A stretch of DNA of 64,000 nucleotides from an uncultured Candidatus Saccharibacteria bacterium (GCA_964582295.1 CAZOQP010000001.1:9588-73587); one strand, 5' to 3'; shown: positions 1 to 53,612, counted from the first letter of the stretch. Numbers and translations are program-made. Notes: a model not told the origin generated them from the letters alone.

Positions 1-47
1 TCTACGGTCGCATTTTTTGTGCCACCACACTTTATCATGAGATGGCC

Positions 48-122
48 TGGTGCCGATGGGTGGAATCGAACCACCATTTTAGGCTTATGAGTCCCACGTT
101 CTAACCATTGAACTACACCGGC
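48..122 (-). tRNA. tRNA with anticodon CAU (Met or Ile2), 75 nt, CCA encoded
   Basis: The reverse complement folds as a canonical cloverleaf. Acceptor GCCGGTG/CATCGGC, U8, D-arm with GG, anticodon loop CUCAUAA, T-arm GGTGG-TTCGATT-CCACC, discriminator A, CCA. Confidence 0.85.
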
Positions 123-208
123 AAATGTCCAGAGAGTATAACTTTTTAAGGGTGAAAAATAAAGGAAACTTGAAGAGGCCCTCTCATATTGATATAGTGT
201 GCCCCTAT

Positions 209-279
209 AGCGGGGTGGAGAAGTAGTATCTCGCAAGGCTCATAACCTTGAGGCCTAGGTGCAATTCCTAGCCCCGCAA
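209..279 (+). tRNA. degenerate tRNA-like element with CAU anticodon loop (pseudo-tRNA or non-canonical tRNA)
   Basis: Folds with acceptor AGCGGGG/CCCCGCA (A1:A72 mismatch), D-stem GAGA/TCTC with a 7-nt D-loop lacking GG, anticodon stem CAAGG/CCTTG with loop CUCAUAA, and T-stem CTAGG/CCTAG with loop UGCAAUU (G at position 55). Core tertiary-contact bases are missing. Confidence 0.3.
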
Positions 280-290
280 CAAGATTAAGA

Positions 291-328
291 CACCACGAAC
301 CCGCCAAGCACTTGGCGGGTTCGTGGTG
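291..328. terminator. 18-bp perfect inverted repeat hairpin (CACCACGAACCCGCCAAG-ca-CTTGGCGGGTTCGTGGTG), likely bidirectional terminator
   Basis: Perfect palindrome with a 2-nt loop, immediately 3' of the minus-strand gene 334..1017. Flanked by A/T-rich sequence. Confidence 0.6.
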
Positions 329-333
329 ATGAA

Positions 334-1017
334 TTAAATAACTCCAAACTCTTTGAAAACAGATTCGTATAAAGAAACTATACGGCGCACTTCGTGCTGA
401 TTCAAATGCAGGGCACCTGTATCATGAGCTATGGCATTCCTCATTTTGTGTGCTTCCCAGGCAGCGTTCAAAGTATTGAAATCGGCTGGCTCCACGGCCT
501 TCAGCTTATCCCCCACTGATTGTCCGCGATAGCTCATGGCGGTAAGAAGTTCATCTAGCATTATGTCCGCCGTGATAATAGCTATCTTCCAGTCGTTCAT
601 TGTGGCTCCGCCCGCATGCTTCAGAACTTCCTCCCATTTGGTATTTTTAGCAGCAGGTGCCGAAGAGATAATGGCCGCGGGGCGGAAGACCGCATTCTGC
701 TCGCGATTGAGGACTGTTAATCGCTTCACCGTTGCATATATTCCGTATATGAAAATAATTGAAAATACGAACGCCAGAAGGCGGATAACCGGATATGCAT
801 TTTCACGGAACCATACAGAAAAGGTGCGAAGCGGAGAAAGATCTGCAAAAGAACTTGCCCCAAAGAAAATAGCTATCCTCCCCAAGAGAGCGGAAATCAC
901 AAAAAGAATAAATATCCAGACCAAAAGATCCGCTGTGAATTCCCCGAGGGTCGCGCCTCCGGTATCTTCTTTTTTAGCGTCTTTTTTCGGATCTTTTTTA
1001 TCCTTAGGATCTGCCAT
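334..1017 (-). CDS. membrane-anchored hypothetical protein with C-terminal HEPN-like Rx4H motif
   Basis: 227-aa ORF with a Lys/Asp-rich N-terminus and two hydrophobic helices. The C-terminal ~90 aa contains MRNAIAHD (Rx4H), the HEPN/DUF4145-type motif. Confidence 0.7.
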   Translation of the reverse strand: MADPKDKKDPKKDAKKEDTGGATLGEFTADLLVWIFILFVISALLGRIAIFFGASSFADLSPLRTFSVWFRENAYPVIRLLAFVFSIIFIYGIYATVKRLTVLNREQNAVFRPAAIISSAPAAKNTKWEEVLKHAGGATMNDWKIAIITADIMLDELLTAMSYRGQSVGDKLKAVEPADFNTLNAAWEAHKMRNAIAHDTGALHLNQHEVRRIVSLYESVFKEFGVI

Positions 1018-1024
1018 ATATGTA

Positions 1025-2425
1025 TTATGCTTCGCCTGCGAAAATTTTTCCTACCGAAAAAAGTATATCTTCTCTGTAATTGTCCGCCATCAATTGGAAA
1101 CCTAGAGGCAGGGAAACACCATCGCGCTCAACCGTACCCGACGGAATGGAAATAGCCGGTATTCCTGAAATGTTCGCAGGCACCGTAAAAATATCAGCAA
1201 GATACATCTCCACGGGATTACCTGTTTTTTCTCCGAGCTTGAATGCAGGCCCCGGCGTAGTTGGAGTGGCGATAGTCGAAACTTCAGCGAAAGCATTCTT
1301 GAACTCTTCTTTGATGACTTTTTGGGCAGCGAGAGCGGAGCCGTAGTATTCATCATTGTAACCAGATGAAAGCACATAGGTGCCGAGCATTATGCGCCTC
1401 TTGGCCTCGGCACCAAAACCGGCTTTCCTTGTTTCCAAATATTCCTGAAGAACAGTCTCGGCAGGAACACTCAAGCCGAAACGCACTCCGTCGTAGCGAG
1501 CAAGATTTGAAGAAGCTTCAGCCGGCATGATGATGTAATACACAGCAAGGGAAAGCGCCATGTGAGGCATCTCAATTTCTTTTATTTCAAAACCATTATC
1601 CCGGAGCCGTGCAAGAGAGCTTTCAAAATTTGCTTTAACGTCTTCTTCAAGACCGTTAGTTATTCCTTTCGGCACTCCTATAACTTTTGCAAAATCTTTT
1701 TTCCCGTCCTCGGGATAAAAAGATGTTCCATCTTCCACATCGCCGCCTTTGATACACTCAAAAATAATTTCTGCATCCGTTACGCTATTCGTAAGAGGAC
1801 CTATCTGATCTAAAGAAGAACCGAGGGCGAGCAGGCCGTATCGCGAGACTGCGCCGTATGTGGGCTTCATTCCCACCACTCCGCAAAAAGCCGCCGGCTG
1901 ACGTATGGAACCACCTGTGTCCGATCCGAGCGCGGCAATAGCTTCCCCTGCCGCCACGGCCGCCGCCGAACCGCCAGATGAACCACCTGGAACACGGGAA
2001 ACATCCAAAGGATTTTTGGTCGGGCCGTAAGCTGAATTCTCTGTGGAACTTCCCATTGCAAATTCGTCCATATTAGTGCGACCGATGAACACTACTCCTT
2101 TCTCCTCAAGTTTCCGGATAGCTGTTGCTGTGTAAGGAGAAACATACCCTTCAAGTATTTTTGAGCCAGCGGTAACTTTTTTCCCAGAAATAGACATGTT
2201 GTCTTTCACTGCTATAGGAATGCCGCGCAAAATATTTTCAGGGAGAGAATCTGCCCGTTTTGCCTGAGCGATCACATCGTCAAATACTTCAAGATATGCA
2301 TGAACACTGTCATCTTTTTCTTTTATAACATCAAGGAATTTTTGGGAAAGCTCCGCGGAGGAAATTTCTTTTTCGCGGAGTGCCCGCGCGGCCTGGCTTA
2401 TGGTTAGATGCGGATTATCTTTCAT
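1025..2425 (-). CDS. gatA: Glu-tRNA(Gln) amidotransferase subunit A
   Basis: 466 aa with amidase signature GGSSGGSAAAVAAG and KDN motif. Followed by gatC. Confidence 0.93.
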   Translation of the reverse strand: MKDNPHLTISQAARALREKEISSAELSQKFLDVIKEKDDSVHAYLEVFDDVIAQAKRADSLPENILRGIPIAVKDNMSISGKKVTAGSKILEGYVSPYTATAIRKLEEKGVVFIGRTNMDEFAMGSSTENSAYGPTKNPLDVSRVPGGSSGGSAAAVAAGEAIAALGSDTGGSIRQPAAFCGVVGMKPTYGAVSRYGLLALGSSLDQIGPLTNSVTDAEIIFECIKGGDVEDGTSFYPEDGKKDFAKVIGVPKGITNGLEEDVKANFESSLARLRDNGFEIKEIEMPHMALSLAVYYIIMPAEASSNLARYDGVRFGLSVPAETVLQEYLETRKAGFGAEAKRRIMLGTYVLSSGYNDEYYGSALAAQKVIKEEFKNAFAEVSTIATPTTPGPAFKLGEKTGNPVEMYLADIFTVPANISGIPAISIPSGTVERDGVSLPLGFQLMADNYREDILFSVGKIFAGEA

Positions 2426-2429
2426 CTTT

Positions 2430-4789
<2,360 letters not shown>

Positions 4790-18355: not shown

Positions 18356-18622
18356 TCAGATAGATCCTCGAGAGTCCCAAGCACCTACACTCACTACGCG
18401 ATTCTGTTCCTGATAAGCATCCATCTTTTCACGTACTTGGTCCCAAGACGGCGCAATTACGGTATAGATTGGATTACCATCCGGCAAATCGCATTCTTCG
18501 GGATCCTCTAACTTATCCCACACCTCGGTGTAGACTCCAGTACTGTCTTCGACAATCGGTCCCGAAACCTTATACAGCCGACACCGATGATTTTGAATAC
18601 CAACCACGGCATTGTCCTGCAT
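18356..18622 (-). CDS. hypothetical small acidic protein
   Basis: 88-aa ORF downstream of the AbrB/MazE-like gene. No recognised domain. Confidence 0.45.
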   Translation of the reverse strand: MQDNAVVGIQNHRCRLYKVSGPIVEDSTGVYTEVWDKLEDPEECDLPDGNPIYTVIAPSWDQVREKMDAYQEQNRVVSVGAWDSRGSI

Positions 18623-18694: not shown

Positions 18695-18883
18695 TTATTT
18701 CTTCCTTTTCTTAGTACGAGCGTCGCGGATGATGAGTGCCCCGCCCGATTTCCTCACCTTCACCCTCTGCCTCTCCCTCCAGCCAAGGCTCTTAACCAAG
18801 TCGGCAGGCAAAGTAAGTCCAAGACTGGCCCGCCCCATCCTCGTCAGCTTCCTTGTATTTGTTTCTGTAGATTTCTTAGCCAT
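18695..18883 (-). CDS. AbrB/MazE/SpoVT-family DNA-binding protein (antitoxin-like)
   Basis: 62 aa. RMGRASLGLTLPADLVKSLGW...VKVRKSGGALIIRD matches a swapped-hairpin AbrB-type domain with a basic C-tail. Confidence 0.75.
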   Translation of the reverse strand: MAKKSTETNTRKLTRMGRASLGLTLPADLVKSLGWRERQRVKVRKSGGALIIRDARTKKRKK

Positions 18884-18915
18884 GTACGTACATATGTAAG
18901 TAGATATGTACGTAC
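18884..18915. promoter_or_regulatory. 12-bp inverted repeat GTACGTACATAT-N8-ATATGTACGTAC abutting the start codon of the AbrB-like gene (candidate operator)
   Basis: Perfect inverted repeat immediately 5' of the start codon at 18883. Confidence 0.5.
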
Positions 18916-18964
18916 ATTGTACATCAAACCTAATTTCATTCGAGTGATTACTTTAACAAAATGC

Positions 18965-19402
18965 TCATTTCTTATATAAAACAAAGAACGGTATTTCATC
19001 GATTCTTATATAGTTGAACATTTTATAATTTGCACGTCTAGCTGTTGAGGATAATTGACGCATTTTTAAATTTATTTTTGGAATAAAAGGATAGAATCTG
19101 ATTTCATGGTGTTTCTCCTTTTTATTTTTATCATCCCATTTAAAATTAGTTATAAGCGGCGGAACCATATAGCCTGATTTCATTACTTTTGAAATAATCT
19201 CCCACCCAGCACCAAAAATTATTGGCTTCGGTTTACTATTGTTTGTTTTTACTTGTGCACGAAAAAGGCATGCCTTACATTGAATATCATATAAGGGGTA
19301 ATTCTTGGGAAGCGCCATAAGTTTCTTTCCACAGTTAGGGCACGGAACAAGTTCTACAACCTCCAATTCTCCTGCATCCCCCGAATCCTTATTTTTACTC
19401 AT
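18965..19402 (-). CDS. DpnI-like PD-(D/E)XK nuclease catalytic domain (no winged-helix domain)
   Basis: 145 aa. PCPNCGKK...YDIQCKACLFRAQVK...GAGWEII...SSTARRANY parallels DpnI motifs (CPNCG, D..EFELK, APTARRAGW). QVK stands in place of ELK. Confidence 0.55.
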   Translation of the reverse strand: MSKNKDSGDAGELEVVELVPCPNCGKKLMALPKNYPLYDIQCKACLFRAQVKTNNSKPKPIIFGAGWEIISKVMKSGYMVPPLITNFKWDDKNKKEKHHEIRFYPFIPKINLKMRQLSSTARRANYKMFNYIRIDEIPFFVLYKK

Positions 19403-19467
19403 ACGAGCATTAGATCATCCAAGGTTTTATAACACAAGACTAGAAAATATTCCTAAATTAAAAATCT

Positions 19468-20205
19468 TTATTTTTGAGCAGCTATCATATCTTTAAGTTT
19501 TTCAATTGAAAGAATAATTGCCTTTTTTCGATGGATGATTCTGTGACAATTTGAGCATACGGGAACAACATTTTTCAGTGCATCCATGATTGACTGTTCA
19601 AGATTATCTTCATACGCAAAAATTGGTTTTAGATGATGAATTTCAATGAATCCTTTACCAGCAAGGCCATAGAACTCTTCAAAATTGAAATTGCAAGCTT
19701 CGCAATAAATTTTATTGTGCTTTTTGAAATGTTCTTTCGCAATCTCAATTAACTTCTTCGATCGAAATCTTGTTTTTACATGGTTAGATCTAATGAAACC
19801 TTCTTCAATAATTAGGTTAACGAAATTTTGATCAATAACTTTTTCTCTATCATTTTCAGAAAAACCATTAGTTTCTATGAAGTCAAAGCCGTCAATGTTG
19901 TCAGAAATATATTTTTTACCTAAGTCAGTTATTTTAAGTAACCCTTTATTTTTACTAATTGTATCGTAGGTTGCTAAACCTTTTTTAAATATACTTCTTT
20001 GGGAAATACCTCTATGAGAAATTATATTTCTTACTTTTTGACTAAAGCGAGTATCCTTGCGATTAGCACTCAGCTCAAGATCTTTCCCTTCTGGTTTTAA
20101 AGTTTCTGTTAGATAAATAATCAGGTTTGATGTCAAAATTCCATCCTCTTTTGACGAAAGATAGACTAACGTGGGCATTATTAAATCACTCTCACTGTAA
20201 ATCAT
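19468..20205 (-). CDS. winged-helix + HNH endonuclease
   Basis: 245 aa. The C-terminus CEACNFNF...IEIHHLKP...VCSNCHRIIH is an HNH domain. The N-terminal region resembles the DpnI C-terminal winged helix. Confidence 0.75.
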   Translation of the reverse strand: MIYSESDLIMPTLVYLSSKEDGILTSNLIIYLTETLKPEGKDLELSANRKDTRFSQKVRNIISHRGISQRSIFKKGLATYDTISKNKGLLKITDLGKKYISDNIDGFDFIETNGFSENDREKVIDQNFVNLIIEEGFIRSNHVKTRFRSKKLIEIAKEHFKKHNKIYCEACNFNFEEFYGLAGKGFIEIHHLKPIFAYEDNLEQSIMDALKNVVPVCSNCHRIIHRKKAIILSIEKLKDMIAAQK

Positions 20206-20207
20206 AT

Positions 20208-21455
20208 TTAGAAGTTATAAATTATAAGATGTTCAACCTCCCTATCATTACGACCTTTTATATTGTACAAATAAGTTTTATCGAAAGTCTTAATTTTAAT
20301 ATTTAACCTGTTTTTATATAAACCTAAAATAAATGGGGTTTTTTTGATTATCAGGATAAATTTTGCTTTTGTTTTATATAAGCAATTAGCTAATCTTTTC
20401 TGATCATTCTTATCAAAAGATTGTTTTTCGTAATCACTAAAATCTGTATCGTATGGTGGATCTAGAAAGATAAAATCTTTTGGTGATAAATCTGTTTTTT
20501 TAATTATCTCTTCAAAATCTACATTTTTAATAGAAGTATTTTTAAAAATTCTTTCTATATTCTCACTTAATATATAGTCAACTTTTTTACGAAAATCTTT
20601 TGAATTATAAGCTATGCCTCCGTAAGGAATATTAAAATGACCCTTGGAATTAAACCTAAACATTGAACCATAGCAAAATTCTCTTACAAAATAATAATTT
20701 GCAATCTTTTTTGATAAAGAAGTCGGATATCTATTTCCATTAAAATTCATCACATCCCTAAAGTGCATGTAGAAACCACTTCTAAACGCTGTTTCAATAT
20801 TCATACGTAGATCTCTGTCATCTATATTCCCTCGCTTTATTTCGATTTCCTTCACCCTCCCAAGTTTAGATATTAGGTTAGAAATGATTTGTTTTAATAG
20901 GTTCTGGTCATCAAGACAAAAACTTTTATGGAATAGTCCATTAAATTTCTTCTCCTCAGCTTTTAGGTAATTATTTACAATATTTTTTAAATTCTCCTTG
21001 GTGATTTTGTCTTTTTTGAAATCAGAATATAATTTTATTAATTTGTCCTCAAAAATATCAATATACTTTGGTATTTTTTCCCAATTATCAACGTAATCAT
21101 AAATTTCTTTTTTAAATTCTTTTTTATTTTTTTCTCCTTTTATAAATTTATAGAAAAAAACTAATTCTTCGCAGATATCGCTTACCACTGCTTCTTTGGG
21201 CTGCAATCTCAAAAAAACTGCACCGCCACCAAAAAATGGTTCTATATATCTATCAAAATCTGGGATTAAATGTTGTATGTATTTAAACTCTTCTGACTTA
21301 CCCCCCGGCCATTTAATAAGAGGCCTGGCATACACGGACTGATTTCCCAAGATGTCACCGCCATTAAAAAACCTAGATTCTTGTAGTACACTCCGATGCT
21401 TTTTATATGATGACAACGTACTCTTTTTTTTAGACCCAAAAAGAATTATCCCCAT
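20208..21455 (-). CDS. Dam-family (D12 class) N6-adenine DNA methyltransferase
   Basis: 415 aa with KWPGGK...EPFFGGGAV (AdoMet binding) and DPPY catalytic motif (FLDPPYDTDF). Confidence 0.85.
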   Translation of the reverse strand: MGIILFGSKKKSTLSSYKKHRSVLQESRFFNGGDILGNQSVYARPLIKWPGGKSEEFKYIQHLIPDFDRYIEPFFGGGAVFLRLQPKEAVVSDICEELVFFYKFIKGEKNKKEFKKEIYDYVDNWEKIPKYIDIFEDKLIKLYSDFKKDKITKENLKNIVNNYLKAEEKKFNGLFHKSFCLDDQNLLKQIISNLISKLGRVKEIEIKRGNIDDRDLRMNIETAFRSGFYMHFRDVMNFNGNRYPTSLSKKIANYYFVREFCYGSMFRFNSKGHFNIPYGGIAYNSKDFRKKVDYILSENIERIFKNTSIKNVDFEEIIKKTDLSPKDFIFLDPPYDTDFSDYEKQSFDKNDQKRLANCLYKTKAKFILIIKKTPFILGLYKNRLNIKIKTFDKTYLYNIKGRNDREVEHLIIYNF

Positions 21456-21542
21456 AGTTTAATTATATATGAAACATATCCACAAAAAGTAAGGGCTGTG
21501 GATCAATTTTAAGAACATATACCCTAAAAGTTAAGGCGGTTT

Positions 21543-21995
21543 TTGGGAATTACAACCACATATCGACTCTATGTATACAACATTATTGGTCGTCGTGGGG
21601 ATATTGTTCCGATATTAGAACCTAAAATGCAGCTCAAATTCGAGAATCTTGATAAAAGTAAACAGAAATTAAGAGCTATCTACAAAGTTCACTCAGATTG
21701 GTTTGAGGTGCTTCAACCCAAGCCTACTAAGAGTAGGAATAATGTGGATTATTCCATCCAACTCAAAAGACTCCAGCTGCAACCTGGAAGATGGCCGCGT
21801 ATGAATAAAGATTACCTTTGTTCTCCCTATCAAAATCCGCTGAAGGGTTGTTACTGCCGAAGAGATGAGGACGCTGAGGAGTGCGAAGACGAGCCAATTC
21901 ATGAGTTAATTATAGCCCTCCTTGGAGATATTCGAGAAATTCACATGGCAGTAAAGATTAGCTGCTATAATATTAACTGTGACAACATCCCATGA
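21543..21995 (+). CDS. hypothetical Cys-rich protein
   Basis: 150-aa ORF in the AT-rich island, overlapping the start of the next gene by 4 nt. No recognised domain. Confidence 0.45.
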   Translation: MGITTTYRLYVYNIIGRRGDIVPILEPKMQLKFENLDKSKQKLRAIYKVHSDWFEVLQPKPTKSRNNVDYSIQLKRLQLQPGRWPRMNKDYLCSPYQNPLKGCYCRRDEDAEECEDEPIHELIIALLGDIREIHMAVKISCYNINCDNIP

Positions 21996-22627
21996 TCATG
22001 CATAAATTAAATTCAAAAAATAAATATGCATTCACGACTGATAAGCTAATCCGCCAAGAACTGAAGAAAACGATTGAAAAGAGATATAAGGACGCGCCTG
22101 TGAGAATTATCGAGGAGTTTGGTTTAGATGATCATGCTACGCGAATTGATATTGCTGTAGTAAATGGAATTTTACATGGTTATGAAATCAAGAGTGACTT
22201 GGATACACTAGGGAGGTTGCCGAAGCAAATGAGTTCTTATAACTCTATTTTCGACCAAATAACTTTGGTTGTTGGAACCCAGCATCTTTATGATGCTTTC
22301 AATATTGTGCCAGACCATTGGGGCATCATGGTCGCTAAGATAGATGGAAAAGGCTCTGTATATTTCAATCACATACGGACAGCCTCTGAGAATACCTCCC
22401 AAGAGAAACTTCCAATAGCAAGACTTCTGTGGAGAGATGAAGCCATCCATTTACTTGAAGATATTGGTTGCGCGCGAGGATATAAGAGTAAGTCAAAAGA
22501 TTTAATTCATAGCAGAATTTCTGATCTTCTTGATCTGAATACTCTCAAAGAAAGAGTGCGCGAGACGCTACTTCTTTCTAGGACTGATTGGAGAGCTGGG
22601 ACAGTACCAGTGCTATATGGTGACTAA
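21992..22627 (+). CDS. sce7726-family-like protein with PD-(D/E)XK nuclease motif
   Basis: 211 aa. RIDIAVVNGILHGYEIKSDLDTLGRLPKQ fits a D-x12-E-I-K restriction-endonuclease-like core. Family resemblance is from memory. Confidence 0.55.
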   Translation: MIMHKLNSKNKYAFTTDKLIRQELKKTIEKRYKDAPVRIIEEFGLDDHATRIDIAVVNGILHGYEIKSDLDTLGRLPKQMSSYNSIFDQITLVVGTQHLYDAFNIVPDHWGIMVAKIDGKGSVYFNHIRTASENTSQEKLPIARLLWRDEAIHLLEDIGCARGYKSKSKDLIHSRISDLLDLNTLKERVRETLLLSRTDWRAGTVPVLYGD

Positions 22628-23759
22628 TCCCTGCTGAGATCCAGTAGGTTGCTGCACCAGTTCCCTTACCTTTATTTTTTTCATCTTTCTTAACAAGTTC
22701 CATATAGGCAGGAAAATAATCTGACTTTTCTTTTATGCGCCTGTCGCCTTCGCTGAAAGCTTCCCCATAAAAGAAGGTACTATCATTCACGAGTTGTTGC
22801 GCATGTGCCAGATACTGATCGTTTCTCTTCTTCTCGCCTCTAAATATTATCCAGTTATTCTCGTGAGTGTATTTCAGCGTTGCAGACGCTTGCATGTATC
22901 GCAGTGCCTCGCTATGCATTGGATAGCGTATCGTATAATCTCCAAAAATTGGTTCTCGCACGAGTTTCCTGCCTTTTTTTGCAGCTAACCATAACTGCCA
23001 GTCATTGCGCGCCTCCATGCATGGACTATCTTCCACTTTGAGATGCCCGACATTCACAGGAAATGATCCGCTAGCAAAGATGACTGCTCTCCAAGCACTT
23101 AGGTTATGAATTTCCTGCACGTTTGAGAACAATTCTGCATATGACGCTTTTGTAGCATCATCGAGATATTTAATATCTAGGAGTAAATCTATTTGGTTTT
23201 CTTTGATGCCGGTCTCAACAACAAAGCTTCTCAATTTTGAGTTCAGATCATCAACCTTTTTCAAATCTGATAGCGTAACTCGTATGCAGATACCAACGAT
23301 AGTGCCTTTCTTGAACTGCTGCACAATTTCGTTCGCAACTTCCTTATCATCGTTTAAGTAGACTACAGGTCTTATATCTACTCCTTTTGCGTGACAAGTT
23401 TCAGCAACCTTTTGGACGCTCTCGACCTTGAGATTTGTTGTTCCAGCTCCATCGTGGATAAGATTGAAATCAATGGTTGCGCTTAGCTTGCCACGGCATT
23501 TTTCAATCTCATCCGGAATTTCCTTCAGACGAAAGTTTTTATACTTCTGAACCACCTCGTTATGTATCTCTTCTTCCGATTTACGAACTCTGGTCTTCTT
23601 ACCTTCAATAACAACAGTTTTATCCTGTGAAACACCGGGTAATACAATTTCAAGAACAGGGAGCAGATTGGCTCTATCTTTTTCAGGAACATTCGTCAAA
23701 GCCGCGATCTCAGCAGCTCGCCATTTAAGAATTGGGCTGTATAAGTAATTTTCTTTCAT
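22578..23759 (-). CDS. sce7725-family-like (beta-protein-like) partner protein
   Basis: 393 aa. N-terminus YSPILKWRAAEIAALTNV...LPVLEIV. Convergent with, and overlapping, the sce7726-like gene. Assignment tentative. Confidence 0.5.
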   Translation of the reverse strand: MKENYLYSPILKWRAAEIAALTNVPEKDRANLLPVLEIVLPGVSQDKTVVIEGKKTRVRKSEEEIHNEVVQKYKNFRLKEIPDEIEKCRGKLSATIDFNLIHDGAGTTNLKVESVQKVAETCHAKGVDIRPVVYLNDDKEVANEIVQQFKKGTIVGICIRVTLSDLKKVDDLNSKLRSFVVETGIKENQIDLLLDIKYLDDATKASYAELFSNVQEIHNLSAWRAVIFASGSFPVNVGHLKVEDSPCMEARNDWQLWLAAKKGRKLVREPIFGDYTIRYPMHSEALRYMQASATLKYTHENNWIIFRGEKKRNDQYLAHAQQLVNDSTFFYGEAFSEGDRRIKEKSDYFPAYMELVKKDEKNKGKGTGAATYWISAGISHHIALVLSQLSNQS

Positions 23760-23764
23760 ATCAG

Positions 23765-24997
23765 TTAAGCTGAATTAAATTCAGGAAAATACTTACGAAC
23801 TTTCGCTTCGCCAACTACTTTGCTCAGACGTTTGAAATCTCTTTCAAACCGCATTCTTCCCGCGATGATAGCAACATGTACACCCAATTCCTTTGCCAAA
23901 GATGTTGCGGCAGTCTTGGATGGAATTAGTTTTGCGGGGCTAATTTCCCATTTCTCCGTAGGAACAAGTGCTTCACCGGCCAAGCTATCTGCTTCGTGCT
24001 CCATTACTCCAATATCTCTACCTTTGATTTCATCGAGTTCGTCATAAAACAACTCACTATCGTTGTTCATGTGAAGTGCAACATGAGCCAACTCGTGCAT
24101 GAGCGTAAACCAGAAGTTATCTATACGGTCGTACCTAAGTGTCAGCCCTATTATAGGATTGTCTTTATTAAGGAAGATTGCCGCTCCGTCAAGTTTCGTT
24201 TTTTTAAACTGTTTTTCAATAACCAAAATAATTCCGTTATCTAGGAGAAACTTTTGCGCCAGAATCGGCGCACCGTCCTTAACACTTAGCTTGGCGAGAT
24301 CTTTCATGAAGTTGAGATTTACCGTGCTAGATTTATATTTCTTCTGTACTTTAACTTTTTGCGCTTTATAGAGGACGCAACCAAGCCACGCCGCGAGAGC
24401 TTGTTTATTTGTTGTTGGAGAAGTTCGGTAGTTTGTTTGTCTAAGCAAAGCACCAAAGTTCAGACTTGCATGATTAAGTGGTGAGAAAAATCTAGAGACT
24501 ACAGCCATTCGACTATCTTCTTTGGGACTGGTATCGTTGAGATACCCACGACTTTTTATTTCCTTGATGACGTCTAGGTGTATGTTTTCAAAGAGATCTT
24601 CTGTCTCTTCTGCAGGCTGTATAAGCACCTTAGCAGGTATACTTAGTTCTTTTTCAAGAGTACGGATCATTTTAAGAGTTAGAGGCGTTTTTCCAGAAAA
24701 TACTTCTGACACCTTACTCTTGCTGCCAATGTAGTGAACCATGTCAGAATCTTTGAGACCCATTTGTTCCATTCTGAACTTGATAGCCTCGACAGGATCA
24801 GGGAGAGAAGAAGGAAAATGGCTCTTTTCATAATCCTCAATCAAGGTGGCTAGCAGGTGGAGTTTGTCTGCTTCAGCAGAACCATTTTTTGGATTCATCA
24901 AAATTAGGCTCTCAAGTATTGCAAGAGCTTCCTTGTGATCTGCTTCTGTTTTAATTATTTTTATTTCCATAAAATTAAGTGATTTTCCACTTTTCAT
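23765..24997 (-). CDS. HigA-like XRE-HTH antitoxin fused to ImmA/IrrE-family Zn-metallopeptidase
   Basis: 410 aa with an N-terminal HTH and a C-terminal HEXXH (HELAHVALH) COG2856-type domain. Confidence 0.75.
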   Translation of the reverse strand: MKSGKSLNFMEIKIIKTEADHKEALAILESLILMNPKNGSAEADKLHLLATLIEDYEKSHFPSSLPDPVEAIKFRMEQMGLKDSDMVHYIGSKSKVSEVFSGKTPLTLKMIRTLEKELSIPAKVLIQPAEETEDLFENIHLDVIKEIKSRGYLNDTSPKEDSRMAVVSRFFSPLNHASLNFGALLRQTNYRTSPTTNKQALAAWLGCVLYKAQKVKVQKKYKSSTVNLNFMKDLAKLSVKDGAPILAQKFLLDNGIILVIEKQFKKTKLDGAAIFLNKDNPIIGLTLRYDRIDNFWFTLMHELAHVALHMNNDSELFYDELDEIKGRDIGVMEHEADSLAGEALVPTEKWEISPAKLIPSKTAATSLAKELGVHVAIIAGRMRFERDFKRLSKVVGEAKVRKYFPEFNSA

Positions 24998-25262
24998 ATT
25001 CAGTGTGAGTGCCGATTTTCTTGACCAAAACCATCTGATTTTCGTAATCGATAATCACCCACAGCCGGTACCTGTTGCCACATATGTTAAATATCGTGCT
25101 CTTGTTTCCCACGGAGTCTGCAGTCGGGAATTTCTGCTTCAGTTCGTGAGGGGTCTTCCATGAGGCATCCTCGATTTCGCTCTCCCAGCTTTCGATCTTG
25201 CTCTTTGCGTCTGTATGCTGCCGTTTGAAGTCGTGCAGGGGTTGCTTACCTAGTAATATCAT
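24975..25262 (-). CDS. higB: HigB-family type II toxin (RelE/ParE superfamily)
   Basis: 95 aa. IFNICGNRYRLWVIIDYENQMVLVKKIGTHTEYEK matches the HigB signature. Sits upstream of, and overlaps, the HTH gene as in higBA. Confidence 0.8.
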   Translation of the reverse strand: MILLGKQPLHDFKRQHTDAKSKIESWESEIEDASWKTPHELKQKFPTADSVGNKSTIFNICGNRYRLWVIIDYENQMVLVKKIGTHTEYEKWKIT

Positions 25263-25289
25263 GGCTTGTAACGATATTTCACATTTATA

Positions 25290-25310
25290 ATTGTTCCCGA
25301 TTCAGGAACA
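25290..25310. promoter_or_regulatory. palindrome TTGTTCC-cgattca-GGAACAA upstream of higB (candidate operator)
   Basis: 7-bp inverted repeat about 30 bp upstream of the higB start. Confidence 0.35.
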
Positions 25311-25448
25311 ATACTCTATGTGATAGACTAATGCAAGCGTTTCAAAAGAAGGAAATGGTTTAGGAGATCAGTCAATACCGTTCCCTTTTTAAGTTACTAA
25401 ACTATAAACGTAAGAACCGACATTTTATGCCGGTTCAAGCATTGAAAT

Positions 25449-25617
25449 CAGGCGGAGGGGATGGGAATTTCACTGCTCGCCCCTCGGCAAGCTCGGGGCT
25501 GCGCTTTAAAACCTGCGGGTTTTAAAGTTTCCACCACGGGAAACTCCCGTTTCCCGACCTCATCGAGTCTGAGGACTCTCAGAGTCTAAACGACCCTTCC
25601 CCGGTTCAAATCCCATC
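25449..25617. repeat. hairpin-rich element built from inverted partial copies of the tRNA-Ser 3' end
   Basis: GGCGGAGGGGATGGGAATTT (5' end) and GGTTCAAATCCCATCCCC (3' end) are inverted and direct near-copies of the tRNA-Ser T-arm/acceptor. Internal perfect hairpins: CTTTAAAACC-tgcg-GGTTTTAAAG, GGGAAAC-tccc-GTTTCCC, GAGTCTGAGGACTC. Confidence 0.6.
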
Positions 25618-25663
25618 CCCATAAACAATTTTAAAATATCAAAAGATATTGAAAATTGTCTTG

Positions 25664-25752
25664 CGGAGGGGATGGGATTTGAACCCATGCGGGATGTATT
25701 AGACCCCGACGGTTTAGCAAACCGTTCCGTTAGACCGCTCCGGCACCCCTCC
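25664..25752 (-). tRNA. tRNA-Ser (anticodon GCU), class II with long variable arm, CCA not encoded
   Basis: The reverse complement reads GGAGGGGTGCCGGAGCGGTCTAACGGAACGGTTTGCTAAACCGT CGGGGTCTAATACATCCCGCATGGGTTCAAATCCCATCCCCTCCG. Anticodon loop UUGCUAA. Confidence 0.85.
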
Positions 25753-25828: not shown

Positions 25829-25876
25829 CCCACAATCTATTCCAGTATTCTCAAGAATACTGGAATAGATTGTGGG
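25829..25876. promoter_or_regulatory. 48-bp palindrome (22-bp perfect stems, loop TCAA) upstream of the ArsR-family regulator
   Basis: CCACAATCTATTCCAGTATTC-tcaa-GAATACTGGAATAGATTGTGG, about 55 bp upstream of the regulator start. Confidence 0.5.
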
Positions 25877-25930
25877 TATGATATAAAATTTATGGGTGTA
25901 AAATTTGCAGGTATAGATATAAATATACAT

Positions 25931-26200
25931 ATGAAAAATTTTAGACAACTCGAGCGATTGGTAAAAGGATTCGCCAATCACCGTAGAATCGAGATCCTCA
26001 ATCTTCTCGATAAGACTCCGGAACTTTCAGTATTTGAGGTTGCCGAAAGATTGAAGATCAACTTCAAGACTGCTTCAGAACACATCCTCCGTCTTGCTAT
26101 CGCCGGCCTGGTGGTGAAAAGAAACGAAGGAAATAACGTGCGACATGCACTTACCAACACCGGAAAATCTATTCTCAAATTCTTGAGAAGACTAGAATAG
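25931..26200 (+). CDS. ArsR/SmtB-family winged-helix transcriptional regulator
   Basis: Start set at the internal ATG (MKNFRQLERLVKGFANHRRIEILNLL...VFEVAERL...RHAL). The track ORF 25754..26200 runs through the upstream palindrome. Confidence 0.7.
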   Translation: MKNFRQLERLVKGFANHRRIEILNLLDKTPELSVFEVAERLKINFKTASEHILRLAIAGLVVKRNEGNNVRHALTNTGKSILKFLRRLE

Positions 26201-26253
26201 ATTTGGATAATAATTGTCCTGATCTTCTTATATTCATTTAGTACAATACCGCC

Positions 26254-28380
26254 ATGCTTGATGAACTCTTTCGACTGAATCCGGCTCAGAAATCCGCCCT
26301 GAAAAAACTGGGTATCACTTCCGTTGAATCTCTCCTTTACCATATCCCCACGCGCTACGCTTCTTTTGATGGGAATAATTCCATAGCGAGCGCGCGGGCA
26401 GGAGAAGATATCGCGCTCATAGTAAACATAGAAAAAATAGAGACCAAAAAAGGATTCCGCTCAAAAATACCAATGGCAACAGGGCGCGTATCAGACCCCA
26501 CAGGGAAAATGGACGTAGTGTGGCTTCGCCAGCCGTACATTGCACGCATGTATCTTGCCGGTTCCACCATAAAAATCTCTGGCAAAGTTTCGGAAAGGAA
26601 CGGAAAGATCTCAATGGTGAACCCTAAAGTGCATCCGCTCACAGGAGAAGAGAACACTCCAATCTTTAGCGGCAAAGAAGGAGAAAGTTTGACTCCTGTA
26701 TATGCGGAAAGCCGCGGAGTGACAAGCGAATGGCTGCGGAATGCGGCTATTCGTCTCATAAAAAACAAACTGCATGAAGCTATAGAAGATCCAATACCGC
26801 CGGAAATGCTTTCTCGTTTTAATCTGCCTACTTTGAAAACCGCTTTTGTGTGGGCGCACATGCCGAAAAAACACGAGCACGCAGAAGCCGCTCGCAAGCG
26901 CTTTGCATTTGAAGAAGTTTTTTTCATACAGTTGGAAAAGCAGAAAGAGCGTGCGGAATGGCAAGCCCATCAGGCATTCGTTATTGAACCGGCAGAAGAA
27001 ACAGAAAGATTCATGGAATCGTTCCCCTACTCGCTCACGGCGGGACAGAAAAAAGCTATTGCGGATATTTTCGGGGATTTTGGCTCGGGTCGGCCGATGG
27101 CGCGGCTTCTTGAAGGCGACGTCGGCTCCGGCAAGACGGCCGTGGCGGCCGCCACGGCCTACGCCACTATCCGCACCCGGCCCAAAGGGCAAACTTTCGG
27201 AGCGCTTCAGGTGGCATACATGGCGCCCACAGAAATACTGGCATCCCAGCATTTTGAATCCTTCATACAATATTTTGTGGGTTCAGGAATTCAGATAGGC
27301 CTCATTACCGGTTCCGGCTGCAGAAAATTCCCGTCCAAAATAAAACGAGACGGCTGGACGGATATTTCCAGAACACAATTATTGAAATGGGTTGAGAACG
27401 GAGAAATACCAATTCTCATAGGTACGCATGCGCTCATACAAAAATCCGTGAAATTCAAACACTTGGCATATGCTGTGGTGGACGAGCAGCACCGCTTCGG
27501 CACGCGCCAGCGCGCGGCCTTGATACAAAAAGACGGCCGCGCGCCGCATCTTCTCTCCATGACAGCCACCCCTATTCCCCGCACATTGGCTCTCACGGTG
27601 TTTGGCGATCTTGATCTCACAGTGTTAGACGAAATGCCGCCGGGACGCAAACCAATAATGACCAAAATAGTGCCGCCGGATCAAAGATTTCATGCATATG
27701 AAGAAGTACGAAAGGAATTGACAGCGGGCAGGCAGGCGTATGTAATCTGCCCGCGTATAGACGAGCCGGATCCGGACAAGGAAATGGCAGTGCAGGCAAA
27801 ATCGGTGAAAGAAGAAGCGGCACGCCTCAAGAAAGAAGTTTTTCCTGAATACGAGATAGGAATTTTGCACAGCAAGATGAAGCCCTCGGAAAAAGATGAA
27901 GTAATGAAAGAATTTTCGGAAGGGCGCATACATATTTTGGTCGCAACATCGGTTGTGGAAGTGGGAGTGAACGTTCCGAATGCCACGTCTATCATCATTG
28001 AAGGTGCAGAAAGGTTCGGCCTGGCACAGCTTCATCAGCTGCGCGGACGTGTGGTGAGAAGCACTCATCAATCACGCTGTTTCGTGTTCTCTGAAGGAAC
28101 GAGTGAAAATACTTTTAGACGTCTGAAATCTTTTGAAAAAGCCAAAAATGGTTTTGAATTGGCTGAATTTGACCTGGAAACACGCGGTGCGGGAGACCTT
28201 GCAGGCGACAAGCAGTGGGGAGTTACCGACCTCGGTATGGAAGCCCTTAAAAATATAAAGATGGTTGAAGCGGCACGGAACGAAGCCAAAACCATAATTG
28301 AAAGCGATCCGGAGCTTTCAAAACATCCATCTCTCCAATCTCACCTGTCCGGACGCCGAACTAAAATTCATTTGGAATAG
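26254..28380 (+). CDS. recG: ATP-dependent DNA helicase RecG
   Basis: 708 aa with wedge domain, Walker A GDVGSGKT, DEQH box and a C-terminal helicase domain. Confidence 0.93.
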   Translation: MLDELFRLNPAQKSALKKLGITSVESLLYHIPTRYASFDGNNSIASARAGEDIALIVNIEKIETKKGFRSKIPMATGRVSDPTGKMDVVWLRQPYIARMYLAGSTIKISGKVSERNGKISMVNPKVHPLTGEENTPIFSGKEGESLTPVYAESRGVTSEWLRNAAIRLIKNKLHEAIEDPIPPEMLSRFNLPTLKTAFVWAHMPKKHEHAEAARKRFAFEEVFFIQLEKQKERAEWQAHQAFVIEPAEETERFMESFPYSLTAGQKKAIADIFGDFGSGRPMARLLEGDVGSGKTAVAAATAYATIRTRPKGQTFGALQVAYMAPTEILASQHFESFIQYFVGSGIQIGLITGSGCRKFPSKIKRDGWTDISRTQLLKWVENGEIPILIGTHALIQKSVKFKHLAYAVVDEQHRFGTRQRAALIQKDGRAPHLLSMTATPIPRTLALTVFGDLDLTVLDEMPPGRKPIMTKIVPPDQRFHAYEEVRKELTAGRQAYVICPRIDEPDPDKEMAVQAKSVKEEAARLKKEVFPEYEIGILHSKMKPSEKDEVMKEFSEGRIHILVATSVVEVGVNVPNATSIIIEGAERFGLAQLHQLRGRVVRSTHQSRCFVFSEGTSENTFRRLKSFEKAKNGFELAEFDLETRGAGDLAGDKQWGVTDLGMEALKNIKMVEAARNEAKTIIESDPELSKHPSLQSHLSGRRTKIHLE

Positions 28381-28454
28381 TCCGCCCGCTTGGACTTGAA
28401 CCAAGGACCCTCGAGGTATAAGCTCGATGCTCTAACCAACTGAGCTACGGGCGG
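28381..28454 (-). tRNA. tRNA-Ile (anticodon UAU), CCA not encoded
   Basis: Canonical cloverleaf: CCGCCCG-TA-GCTC-AGTTGGTTA-GAGC-A-TCGAG-CTTATAC-CTCGA-GGGTC-CTTGG-TTCAAGT-CCAAG-CGGGCGG-A. Anticodon positions 34-36 are UAU. Confidence 0.8.
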
Positions 28455-31343: not shown

Positions 31344-31725
31344 GGGGGTGAAAGGTATCGACAAGATGCCTTCTCCGAAAGATGCGGGAGAGAGTGGAAC
31401 CTCTTTAACTTCCAAAAACCTAACTGCAAAAAACGCGGTAGCACAAGTCTCTCCGTATTTTACGGAGAATGACTTCCAGTTCGCATTCGCTCGCGCTTAA
31501 TTGCGCGACCGTGCGACAGATTACTTCACGACGCCTCTGGTGGAGTAAGCTGGCTTTATGAGGCACCTCTTCTCTTCGTGGCCCATGAGGAGAAGAAAAA
31601 CAGGGCTTGGGTAATGAGCGCTTTGTCAGTTTGTGGCTCATTACCGACAATTCAAATTGACTATCTTTCGTAGATTCATTCGGAAAAACATCTTGCACGG
31701 GATTTCAATATCCCCACCTCCACCA
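31344..31725 (+). ncRNA. ssrA: tmRNA (transfer-messenger RNA)
   Basis: Immediately 3' of smpB. The 5' end GGGGGUG pairs with the 3' end CACCUCC-A-CCA, including the G3:U70 Ala identity wobble. T-arm-like GGGAUUUCAAUAUCCC. Internal reading frame ending ...ENDFQFAFARA-TAA (about 31470-31500). Length 382 nt. Confidence 0.8.
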
Positions 31726-51418: not shown

Positions 51419-51766
51419 TTATTTTTTTACTGCTTCAGCCGGAGCTGCCTTGGATGCCTGGGCGGAAGCTATTTCAGCTTCCTTTTTCTTGGTTTCCAGT
51501 TCCTTCTGCATCTTTCCTCCGTGCTTTATGAATTTGCGGGTGGGAGAGAATTCGCCCAAGCGGTGACCCACCATATCTTCCGTAACGAAAACCTCAATGT
51601 GTTCCCGGCCGTTATGGACCCCAAAGGTGTGCCCCACCATCTCCGGAGCTATCTGGCTGTCTCTTGCCCAGGTCTTTATCACTCCGGCAGAGCCGGGCTT
51701 TTTACCCTCAATCTTCTTGAGGAGTTTTTCATATACATAGGGTCCTTTTGAGGATGAACGTGTCAT
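51419..51766 (-). CDS. rpsS: 30S ribosomal protein S19 (C-terminal Lys/Ala-rich extension)
   Basis: S19 core ([13 protein letters not shown]...[35 protein letters not shown]). 115 aa. Confidence 0.9.
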
Positions 51767-51826: not shown

Positions 51827-52714
51827 TCAACGGGTAGGTCTATTCCTAAAAACGGAGATTTTCTCCTTCAATTTATACGCATTCCCATGTCTCAATAGCC
51901 CCAGATAAGACTGCACCGTTTCCGCCTTAACATCACCATTTTCGAGATTTTTCATCATCCTTCGCTTGGTAGTGGTTCTCAATACGCGATAATCATGAAA
52001 ATGCACCCAGCCCAGGAAATCCACACCTGAAGCCAAGGTTTTAATGAATACCTTGTCCGGATGAAGAGTGAGTTTAAGCTTCTCTCCTAGATAACATACG
52101 ATATATCGTATGTTATCTAGGAGGTTTCCTTTGTCATGGTGGAGTATTACGAAATCATCTGCATAGCGTATGTAGTGTTTTACTTTGAGCGTGTGCTTCA
52201 TGTATTGATCAAACTCGTTCATGTAGACATTTACCAGAAGCTGGGAGGTGAGGTTCCCGAGGGGCAGTCCAATGCCAGAAGCAGTGCTTGAGAAGCTTCC
52301 TATGACCTTTTGGAGAAGCCACATGGTGTCCTCATCTTTTATATGCTTGTTCAGGATTTCAATGAGTATTGAATGATCAATTGATGCGAAAAACTTGCGC
52401 ACATCGCATTTCAATATAAAACATGTGCGTGTCCTGTTGTTTGAAACTTTATATGAAAATCTTTTAAATCTCTCCATCGCCTTGTGGGTGCCTTTAAAGT
52501 TCCGGCAGGAATAGGAATCGTGTATGAATCTTTTGTCAAAGTACGGATACAAAACCCTGTATATGGCGTGGTGGAGCAGTCTGTCCCTCACGCTCGCCTT
52601 GTGGATATTCCTCGGCTTGGGGTCCGAAATGTTGAAAGCTGAATATCCTCCATGTGTATATGTTTTTCCGGCCAAATCCTGATGCAAAGAGAGTATGTTG
52701 TCCATGAGCCGCAA
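51827..52714 (-). CDS. diversity-generating retroelement reverse transcriptase
   Basis: 295 aa. RT motifs 1-7 with IRYADDFVIL (motif 5) and the DGR-specific motif 4 variant LGNLTSQ (I/LGxxxSQ, in place of QGxxxSP). No maturase or endonuclease domain. Confidence 0.85.
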   Translation of the reverse strand: MRLMDNILSLHQDLAGKTYTHGGYSAFNISDPKPRNIHKASVRDRLLHHAIYRVLYPYFDKRFIHDSYSCRNFKGTHKAMERFKRFSYKVSNNRTRTCFILKCDVRKFFASIDHSILIEILNKHIKDEDTMWLLQKVIGSFSSTASGIGLPLGNLTSQLLVNVYMNEFDQYMKHTLKVKHYIRYADDFVILHHDKGNLLDNIRYIVCYLGEKLKLTLHPDKVFIKTLASGVDFLGWVHFHDYRVLRTTTKRRMMKNLENGDVKAETVQSYLGLLRHGNAYKLKEKISVFRNRPTR

Positions 52715-52826
52715 GCCAAACTCCTGAACATCCTTTCTGTTCCGCTTGCCTCTTAAAAATTCCCTCCACGCTTCAAGGAGATTGTCTAAAGAAATGATAT
52801 CGTTATAGGTATGAGAAAACTCCCCT

Positions 52827-53213: not shown

Positions 53214-53236
53214 TACGGGGGAGAACCATAATAGTG

Positions 53237-53365
53237 GCGCACGGCGAGGAACCGGCAACGCTCATCCCACTCGTTGTCGTTCCAGTTCAGATTGAGCTTG
53301 CGCTTAGAATCGTTCACGTCGAGATACGGAACGTTGCGATTGTCGTCCAACTGCGAGACGGAGCC
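53237..53365 (-). repeat. DGR template repeat (TR), 129 bp
   Basis: Near-identical to 53706-53834. All 14 mismatches have A in this copy (minus-strand sense) and G or T in the other. Confidence 0.85.
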
Positions 53366-53612
53366 TTGTACGACAAACCATCCATACCACCACCCATTGA
53401 ATAATCCCCGGGTTGAATCTTATTCGTGACCTTTGTGTCACATAGTTTGTCGCACCAACTTTCTCTGGTTTTTACCAAACCCGGAAACTCTCTTTCGGAA
53501 GCCGTGGCCGCCGAAACTCTCATTACTCGGGCGTGCGAACAAGTTACCCAAAGCCGTAACCGTAGGTTTTTCACTTGTCTCAATTATTGTATAGAAAAAA
53601 TTTACATATGAA

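Follow-up and report, generated by a model that had tools for sequence, protein, structure and literature searches.

The 64,000-nucleotide stretch of DNA analyzed here, from an uncultured Candidatus Saccharibacteria bacterium (GCA_964582295.1, CAZOQP010000001.1:9588-73587; hereafter the window, with positions counted from its first nucleotide), contains at 18965-25262 a compact AT-rich segment next to a tRNA-Ser(GCU) gene. We interpret this segment as a horizontally acquired defence island that has no integrase and is made up of at least two cassettes, the part nearest the tRNA belonging to a family of islets at tRNA-Ser genes, and we interpret the partial copies of the tRNA 3′ end that lie beside it as the arms of a separate small element, referred to here as the trailer element. 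Taken as a whole, we give this reading a probability of about 0.62. The island is in itself of an ordinary kind, a defence island beside a tRNA gene, and it is the host and the lack of a resident recombinase that are unusual. We took the genome to be patescibacterial, of the Paceibacteria/Parcubacteria type. Patescibacteria have tiny genomes, mostly without CRISPR, and phage defence and gene flow in these organisms are poorly understood. The locus represents a compact island of restriction-modification (RM) and PD-Lambda-2/cII-like genes in such a genome, and it draws attention to a recurrent slot at tRNA-Ser 3′ ends in which unrelated defence cassettes would be exchanged without a resident integrase.

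A preliminary description of the window, made from the sequence without database searches, reported a drop in GC content at about 18900-25300 relative to the flanks, and quantitative analysis bears this out. Against a background of 106 2-kb windows with a GC content of 0.477 ± 0.016, 2-kb windows in the island reach GC z-scores down to −11.9 and tetranucleotide L1 z-scores up to +17.6, so the composition of the region is not uniform. The deviation comes in two tiers, with GC contents of 0.28-0.34 from 18.97 to 21.46 kb (the RM block, 18965-21455) and of 0.39-0.45 from 21.5 to 25.3 kb (the block at 21543-25262). The left edge is sharp and falls between the start of a MazE/AbrB-like gene (18883) and the stop of a DpnI-like gene (18965); the former gene, which had been placed within the AT-rich stretch, has the native composition and lies outside it, while the rest of the gene content then listed is essentially correct. 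The tetranucleotide TCGA is avoided in the background (observed/expected ratio 0.49) versus 0.98 in the island, and this contrast is a second mark of foreign origin beside composition, with the deviant GC and third-position GC (GC3) of the individual island genes providing further evidence of it. CTAG has an observed/expected ratio of 0.51 outside 18900-25300, and TCGA and CTAG are both scarce only outside the island and not within it, which may reflect a TCGA-specific restriction system in the lineage of the host. Coding density in the island is high, and because none of its intergenic gaps exceeds 189 nt there is no room in it for a decayed integrase. A 28-nt inverted match at 71% identity between 18968-18995 and 25374-25401 was set aside as a candidate terminal repeat; it falls within the DpnI-like coding region.

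The eight open reading frames (ORFs) of the island and the features between the island and the tRNA are listed in Table 1. The three genes nearest the tRNA form, by gene content, a PD-Lambda-2 system; systems of this kind are defined as protecting against phage, with a toxic component B that is neutralised by A and with C needed for defence. The preliminary description had recognized a higB/higA-immA pair at this position; those genes are present, and with the adjacent gene for a Beta protein they make up the complete three-gene system, with PADLOC matches to A, B and C. They are arranged in the order A-B-C on the minus strand as overlapping or abutting ORFs. The published PD-Lambda-2 is a three-component anti-phage system (Vassallo et al. 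2022, PMC9519451), with which the genes in the window share the HigB-like protein, the HigA-like fusion of a helix-turn-helix (HTH) domain to a peptidase, and the protein resembling P4 Beta, in identical order; the differences are the patescibacterial host and the presence here of a convergent cII-like gene, which stands outside the published three-gene description.

Table 1. Features of the island and of the interval between the island and tRNA-Ser(GCU), in window coordinates.
Feature	Position	Strand	Evidence and remarks
tRNA-Ser(GCU) gene	25663-25752	−	ARAGORN; Rfam tRNA 56.3 bits; 3′ end faces the island
H0, AT-rich hairpin spacer	25621-25662	−	Sequence and fold; equivalent hairpins in the elements of all relatives
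5′ arm, inverted copy of the last 18 nt of tRNA-Ser	25603-25620	−	Exact 18-mer, repeat search, long-hairpin alignment
Element core, 4-5 hairpins	25471-25602	−	GC 0.57 over 25452-25620; motif GGTCGGGAAAC..GTTTCCCGTGGNGGAA
3′ arm, direct copy from T-loop to discriminator	25452-25470	−	Repeat search, 17/18
Terminator-like hairpin distal to the element	25414-25436	−	Terminator scan
PD-Lambda-2 component A (HigB-like), 95 aa	24975-25262	−	PADLOC PD-Lambda-2_A 2e-34; PF09907 3.1e-28
PD-Lambda-2 component B (HigA-like HTH fused to ImmA/IrrE metallopeptidase), 410 aa	23765-24997	−	PADLOC PD-Lambda-2_B 4.8e-135, full length; PF06114 2.4e-10
PD-Lambda-2 component C (Beta protein), 393 aa	22578-23759	−	PF14350 6.3e-55; PADLOC PD-Lambda-2_C 8e-37
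sce7726-family / phage P4 cII-like protein, 211 aa	21992-22627	+	NCBIfam NF033832 4.6e-46; PADLOC 'cll' 4.6e-26; PF26915 in precomputed annotation
Small ORF (hyp150), 150 aa	21543-21995	+	tblastn matches in relatives
Dam-family (D12) N6-adenine DNA methyltransferase	20208-21455	−	PF02086 1.7e-32; TIGR00571 1.5e-46; PADLOC MTase_II 7e-55; GC 0.28
HNH nuclease, 245 aa	19468-20205	−	Pfam HNH 1.1e-4; PADLOC mREase_IV 1.4e-6; GC 0.31
DpnI-like nuclease domain protein, 145 aa	18965-19402	−	PF06044 1.1e-10; PADLOC mREase_II 5.4e-5; GC 0.34
MazE/AbrB-like gene	18695-18883	−	PF04014 1.4e-5; GC 0.52; left-edge marker of native composition, not part of the island

The cII-like gene overlaps the small ORF by 4 nt and is convergent with the Beta gene, their 3′ ends overlapping by about 50 nt both in the window and in three other loci (L163, L165 and L166; loci outside the window are given as L numbers). 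Gene content and order point to a four-gene unit related to gop-beta-cII, a system of satellite P4 (Rousset et al. 2022, PMC9122126), in which, as here, a Beta-family protein adjoins a cII-family protein in a defence context. The window differs in having no Gop, the toxin side being formed instead by the HigB-like protein and the ImmA peptidase: no Gop model was matched in PADLOC, the only components of that system recovered being 'beta' (1.7e-9) and 'cll' (4.6e-26), and the Beta protein of the window fits PD-Lambda-2_C (8e-37) far better than it fits the beta of the gop system. The four-gene arrangement ties together two systems that have been validated experimentally in E. coli, and it may help to explain the Beta and cII proteins.

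In the RM block the assignment of the methylase to the D12 family is firm, and the genes for the HNH nuclease and the DpnI-like protein are adjacent to it and co-oriented. The HNH nuclease is the probable partner of the methylase, and the best PADLOC matches of both nucleases are to methyl-directed classes, with weak E-values. The methylase has many homologues with 66-79% identity, and because these are 373 aa long the annotated 415-aa ORF is probably too long, with the true start near 21329. As in type II RM systems with a Dam-family methylase, the D12 methylase gene (TIGR00571) is followed directly by that of an HNH nuclease, and the gene that comes after the closest methylase homologue, in L167, is of nearly the same length as this nuclease (243 aa). 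What differs is the third gene, which encodes the catalytic part only of a DpnI-like, methyl-directed nuclease, without the C-terminal winged-helix part of DpnI. The small ORF between the two groups of genes has no Pfam or NCBIfam match. Neither the precomputed annotation of 16-38 kb nor a further 20 window ORFs include a recombinase, and the eight island ORFs all have other assignments or none; the absence of an integrase gene noted in the preliminary description is therefore upheld.

For comparison we used 160 related recG loci from GTDB genomes and JGI metagenomes. The RecG encoded in the window (26254-28380) is 56-72% identical to those of the relatives, the closest being at 70-72%, and the gene order common among them is PilM, ComF, a variable interval, RecG, tRNA-Ile(UAU), FtsH and tmRNA. 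In none of the 160 loci is there a homologue of the RM, cII-like or PD-Lambda-2 genes within 10 kb of recG, so the island, far from being present in all relatives at this position, is present in none of them (0/160). In a look for strain-level variants, only one other contig with identical flanking proteins came up (Logan SRR6868922), and it carries the same island; a protein search located a further identical copy, on an NCBI contig of 216 kb. The nearest homologues of PD-Lambda-2 B other than itself are 67-84% identical to it, and in the three contexts examined (L163, L165 and L166, with B at 70-75% identity) the same four-gene unit is found between unrelated flanks. The methylase homologue in L167 lies inside another RM system, and those in L168 and L169 are followed by a 140-aa gene. 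These contexts show that the RM block and the four-gene PD-Lambda-2/cII-like cassette circulate separately.

In 46 relatives the interval between ComF and recG varies from 292 bp to more than 9.5 kb, and its contents are mostly ordinary genes such as those for MgtC, HhH-GPD, response regulators and glycosyltransferases; no integrase family was seen twice or more in it. The closest relative, L083 (RecG 72%), has an AT-rich segment (0.30-0.35; positions 1-3540) upstream of tRNA-Ser(GCU) with genes for a Schlafen-group-3-like helicase and a MazG-like protein, a different accessory set in a comparable position.

The small ORF leads to a set of loci elsewhere. Its N-terminal ~70 residues are conserved in L009 (two copies), L055, L085 and L140/L142, with 46-57% identity by tblastn, and L170 has a homologue (P0247) with 64% identity. 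Four of the loci (L009, L055, L140/L142 and L170) have the small ORF at the edge of a defence-gene block that is farther from the tRNA; the ORF points into the block, and the block ends at the 3′ end of a minus-strand tRNA-Ser gene; L085 has the small ORF and no tRNA gene in the locus. The blocks consist of AbiTii, a LexA-fused N6_N4 methylase and a BglII-like nuclease in L009, an OLD/AAA_15 protein, LexA and a large methylase in L140, a ClpP-like protein, LexA and a C5 methylase in L055, and an N6 methylase (N6_Mtase) with an HTH-Panacea protein in L170, the last beside tRNA-Ser(UGA) in a different neighbourhood. LexA-like domains, comprising the DNA-binding part and the S24 peptidase, are fused to RM methylases or directly precede them at L009:3732-5324, L140:5265-8403 and L055:3027-4824.

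In L170 a 4.26-kb segment with a GC content of 0.31-0.38, against 0.44-0.50 in its flanks, is bounded on one side by the tRNA 3′ end and on the other by a same-orientation copy of it (20/23) just outside the small ORF, with no integrase within 9 kb. Between 21543 and the tRNA the window has the same arrangement, minus the distal copy, and the AT-richer RM block beyond the small ORF looks like a further addition. By analogy with L170, tRNA-directed site-specific insertion is plausible for the islet family.

The tRNA-Ser(GCU) gene is on the minus strand, and the island, at lower coordinates, lies on its 3′ (canonical) side; it does end next to the tRNA, as the preliminary description had it. The two partial copies of the tRNA end that were reported also exist, far beyond chance expectation, with the direct and inverted labels interchanged: the direct copy is at 25452-25469 (GCGGAGGGGATGGGAATT, 17/18), 194 nt from the tRNA, and the inverted copy at 25603-25620 (GGTTCAAATCCCATCCCC, 18/18), with weaker complementarity extending to 42 nt at 74%. 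Given the strand of the tRNA, both copies are between it and the island, and not on the far side of the tRNA as had been supposed. Nor do they fit the role of att duplications of the island that was offered for them, since they bracket only the ~190 bp between tRNA and island, and the same module is found in relatives with little or no island. Smith-Waterman alignment gave no third copy of the tRNA end in the 64-kb window (other scores ≤22, against null maxima of 19-26), a 23-mer search of the window with three mismatches stayed at the null level, and a focused scan upstream of the small ORF reached a score of 16, against a 95% null of 19-20, and thus gave no distal copy. Direct repeats of the attL/attR kind bracketing the whole island are therefore absent.

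What the copies do bracket is a structured module. Read in the sense of the tRNA, the order is tRNA, the H0 hairpin, the 5′ arm, ~130 nt of GC-rich hairpins, the 3′ arm, a terminator-like hairpin and the PD-Lambda-2 promoter region. Two partners are open to the 5′ arm for pairing, the 3′ half of the tRNA itself and the 3′ arm. The element folds far better than shuffled sequences (z = −4.1 and −4.7) and is present in a single copy in the window. The terminator-like hairpin is probably the native terminator of the tRNA displaced by the element, because the original terminator of the filled site L088, described below, sits likewise. The core motif GGTCGGGAAAC..GTTTCCCGTGGNGGAA is common to L034, L009, L056 and L080, and an nhmmer search with the core alone recovered L080 (3e-4) and L034 (0.018), in both cases downstream of tRNAs. 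In Rfam 15 the element region of the window gave only chance-level hairpin matches of miRNA type, and the elements of L138, L108, L122 and L034 gave none.

Several other identities for the module were considered and rejected. In 25452-25620 ARAGORN and Rfam found nothing, at E-values up to 10, to suggest a further tRNA, a gene of tmRNA type or a known ribozyme; a decayed tRNA-Ser(ACU) is not in keeping with arms that match the tRNA-Ser(GCU) of the window and not the ACU type; and a hammerhead-like reading of 'GATGAG...GAAAC' was ruled out by sequence inspection and the Rfam negatives.

Similar modules are found widely among the relatives. Of 118 tRNA-Ser genes (GCU and ACU), 18 have a copy of their own 3′ end within 450 nt downstream (16-mer, at most two mismatches), and 17 of these 18 copies end 116-211 nt past the tRNA end; some tRNA-Ile genes likewise have a copy of their own 3′ end downstream. 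There are two sequence subtypes with a common layout and a GGGGTC-hairpin-GTG motif, and the window belongs to the subtype of L034, L009, L056 and L080. Scanning some 2.2 Mb of relatives with a covariance model built for the other subtype gave 52 matches. Of these, 38 share the strand of a tRNA-Ser, tRNA-Ile, tRNA-Ala or tmRNA gene and lie no more than 150 nt downstream of it, where 0.7 would be expected at random. Several of the remaining matches follow tmRNA-like ends missed by ARAGORN, and because ARAGORN misses tmRNAs this association is measured too low. The tmRNA of the window (31344-31725; Rfam 103.8 bits) is itself missed by that program, and those of L022 and L072 seemingly are too. 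In a model-fitted alignment of 28 copies, 91.5% of cells are paired, versus 35-49% with slid partners, and compensatory changes occur in 29 of 32 pairs, supporting a three-way junction formed by the arms (P0), P1 and P2.

Comparison of closely related loci bears on how the element comes to be where it is. Several genomes have two or three copies within 22 kb. L088 has ~107 extra nucleotides exactly after tRNA-Ile that L086 and L087 do not have, although upstream they match L088 at 97% identity and downstream at 88%. The terminator originally present in L088 has been displaced to just behind the element; L005 (filled) and L003 (empty) form a second such pair. From these comparisons the element appears to be inserted DNA with its boundary at the tRNA end. 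In L019 the copies share their H0 flanks, and the 5′ arm is GTCCG behind a tRNA-Ile ending in CGGAC and GTGGA behind a tRNA-Ala ending in TCCAC. The shortest arms measure 4-6 nt and the longest about 20 nt; a direct arm match of at least 7 nt is found with the cognate tRNA in 49% of cases versus 6% with non-cognate tRNAs, and a long inverted arm match in 34% versus 8%. In empty sites the native terminator likewise folds back to pair with the tRNA end, so that templated correction of quasi-palindromes may be how the arms grow.

The element is independent of islands, because it is also found without one, with 176-720 nt to the next conserved gene. There is also a link between the element and islands: the strains L006 and L138 are 96% identical, and their similarity breaks off precisely where the 3′ arm ends on its outer side. 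Beyond that point L006 has 1.2 kb of AT-rich cargo and then another copy of the tRNA end, longer than the first (27/29 with the T-arm included), and a G/T difference in the copies fits a crossover within the shared core. In L016 two elements stand in tandem. In these loci the 3′ arm behaves as a reusable site resembling a tRNA end. Plain duplicates of the 3′ ~35-55 nt of tRNA-Ile also occur 25-90 nt downstream of the gene (approximately L019:12571-12604, L020:21343-21397 and L080:12617-12655); these have an intact T-arm and no trailer core in between, and are like att-type or tandem partial duplications. The element motifs had no matches in viral contigs. Trailer elements of this kind were not described in the literature searched, in which the nearest topic, group I introns at position 35/36 of Patescibacteria tRNAs, is unrelated.

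In the course of events that we favour, a hairpin-rich trailer element of ~190 nt would have been inserted exactly at the end of the tRNA gene, and its 3′ arm, by recreating the tRNA 3′-end sequence, could provide a landing site for further insertions. The part of the island from the small ORF to the tRNA would be a member of the family of defence islets that occupy the tRNA-Ser 3′-end slot in Patescibacteria. This part (21.5-25.3 kb), made up of the second cassette, with the HigB-like, HTH-ImmA peptidase and Beta genes and the convergent P4-cII-like gene, and of the small ORF preceding that cassette, would, by analogy with L170 and L006, most likely have entered at the tRNA-Ser 3′-end sequence through a recombinase that acts in trans and recognises such sequence. 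The first cassette, the very AT-rich RM block with the Dam-family methylase, the HNH nuclease and the DpnI-like protein, would have been added separately.

The most familiar explanation would be that the whole of 18.9-25.3 kb is one integrase-mediated insertion at the tRNA-Ser 3′ end, with the two copies as attL and attR and the integrase subsequently lost. The island does abut the 3′ side of the tRNA, a same-orientation copy of the tRNA end does exist, and there are comparable att-bounded islets in L170 and L006; but that copy is on the tRNA side, so that it does not bracket the island, no copy is present at or near the far edge, the same bracketed module stands in relatives without islands, and the island is compositionally tiered and composed of cassettes that circulate separately. 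We consider a single insertion of this type very unlikely. Integrase-less derivatives of tRNA-linked genomic islands are known, among them the cis-mobilisable elements (CIMEs) of streptococcal integrative and conjugative elements. The island is like these in its position at a tRNA 3′ end, its deviant composition and its accessory (defence) cargo, and, through L170 and L006, in the occurrence of tRNA 3′-end direct repeats in related loci and the possibility of tandem accretion; it is unlike them in having neither integrase nor distal repeat, and in that the repeat here brackets a 190-nt structured element and not the island. Alternatively there may have been no site-specific step at all, the cassettes having arrived by DNA uptake with homology-facilitated or illegitimate recombination, and the position beside the tRNA being incidental. 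A type IV pilus/ComF competence-like cluster lies directly to the left (PilM, ComF, type II secretion system E/F, prepilin peptidase), neither a recombinase nor a distal repeat is present, and the cassettes are found elsewhere in unrelated contexts, all of which would suit such an origin. It is harder to reconcile with chance placement that the layout of small ORF, defence genes and tRNA-Ser 3′ end recurs in five independent loci, including at another isoacceptor in another neighbourhood and once with att-like repeats, and we regard incidental placement as unlikely.

As to the trailer element, we tentatively propose that it represents an undescribed class of small mobile elements at tRNA and tmRNA 3′ ends in Patescibacteria, with a three-way-junction core and arms rewritten to match up to 20 nt of the host tRNA, which would act as a decoy landing pad where integrase-less islets accrete while the tRNA gene stays undamaged; this is possible, at somewhat less than even odds. 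If confirmed, it would be a new kind of target-matched small element, and it would explain partial tRNA copies beside islands that mislead the calling of att sites. The module could instead be a small RNA co-transcribed with the tRNA, with a tRNA-like end through which tRNA-processing enzymes would release it and with arms kept by selection for RNA pairing, in the manner of rtT. The tyrT locus of E. coli has 178-bp trailer repeats associated with the rtT RNA, for which there is an Rfam family, and there too a trailer lies behind a tRNA gene and finishes with a duplicate of that tRNA's final ~19 nt; the element has no sequence or Rfam match to it, and adds an inverted copy, a conserved structured core and an association with several kinds of tRNA and with tmRNA. 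The same-strand location of the matches downstream of tRNA and tmRNA genes, the conserved three-way junction with its many compensatory changes, and the end of the 3′ arm at the discriminator position all accord with an RNA of this sort, whereas the terminator-like hairpin that usually stands between tRNA and element, the sequestration of the tRNA's 3′ half by the 5′ arm that would be expected in a read-through transcript, and the presence/absence differences among close relatives with several copies per genome, which point to insertion events, do not. We think a trailer RNA somewhat unlikely, while noting that it and a mobile DNA are not mutually exclusive. As a further candidate, the module could be a non-autonomous hairpin element that a Y1 transposase of the IS200/RAYT type mobilises in single-stranded form, with the target read by pairing of the 5′ arm, beside the foot of the hairpin, with the tRNA end. 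Hairpin repeats of the REP/BIME, PATE and MITE types are moved by Y1 transposases (IS200/IS605, RAYT), and IS200/IS605 guides are 4-5 nt long. The trailer element resembles the REP classes (PMC3733652) and these other repeats in being small, non-coding, hairpin-rich and multi-copy, with presence/absence differences and a Y1 transposase in the same window; it differs in its strict location at tRNA/tmRNA 3′ ends, its conserved three-way-junction core, and arms that copy up to 20 nt of the adjacent tRNA. The transposase of the window is 29 kb away and flanked by identical hairpins (54526-55223), and L066, in which there is an element too, encodes a homologue with 50% identity. Its chemistry would be suited to a hairpin DNA that finds its target through base pairing. 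Insertion is orientation-specific and occurs precisely 3′ of a defined sequence, the 5′ arm, next to a hairpin, complements the target, and terminal repeats are short or absent in several copies. Against this, the hairpins flanking the transposase have no sequence similarity to the element, and guides of the known size fall well short of 20 nt, making Y1 mobilisation distinctly improbable.

A number of points weigh against the interpretation of an islet-type defence island entering beside a trailer element. The island in the window is accompanied by no integrase or transposase and by no distal att copy, and of the six loci with the small ORF just one shows a distal repeat. Nor does the island begin at the 3′ arm, the displaced terminator being in between. 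The element in the window is of a divergent subtype, with modest similarity in its core (E = 3e-4 to 0.02), and it gives no match to the covariance model made for the other subtype; the covariation was moreover counted on an alignment fitted to the model and thereby leaning to the structure, although the margin is large. The relatives are distant enough that absence of the island from them does not date its acquisition. Finally, the idea that the ComF-recG interval is a general hot spot for defence genes had to be rejected in view of the varied ordinary genes that it holds in the 46 relatives.

Other features of the window and its relatives deserve mention. Two ATGTACGTACAT palindromes directly upstream of the MazE/AbrB-like gene (18877-18917) are like antitoxin operators, and an 88-aa ORF downstream of that gene (18356-18622) has no family match. 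On the other side of the tRNA a perfect 23+23-nt palindrome (25829-25876) stands before an ArsR-like gene (25892-26200), and a related 38-nt palindrome with 84% complementarity (26166-26203) comes after it.

At least 26 relatives (L004, L006, L008, L009 and 22 others, for example L071:9877-9966) have beside tRNA-Ser(GCU) a tRNA-Ser with the anticodon ACU (loop UUACUAA), which is absent from the window; to our knowledge, A34 tRNAs other than tRNA-Arg are rare in bacteria. A tRNA-Ile(UAU) gene lies beside recG in the window (28380-28454) and in most relatives, which suggests that AUA is read in this group without a lysidine-modified CAU tRNA.

The S10 ribosomal-protein operon contains a diversity-generating retroelement (51827-54309) between rpsS (51419-51766) and rplB (55230-56069), with genes for a reverse transcriptase (51827-52714, minus strand) and a bAvd-like protein (52827-53213). 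Its template and variable repeats are 148 nt long (53229-53376 and 53699-53846) and 85% identical, the variable copy being located at the 3′ end of an ORF at 53701-54309. The Y1 (IS200/RAYT-like) transposase gene (54559-55209) lies inside the same operon, and its two identical flanking hairpin repeats are 23 nt long (TTTACATAGGCAAGACCTATGTA).

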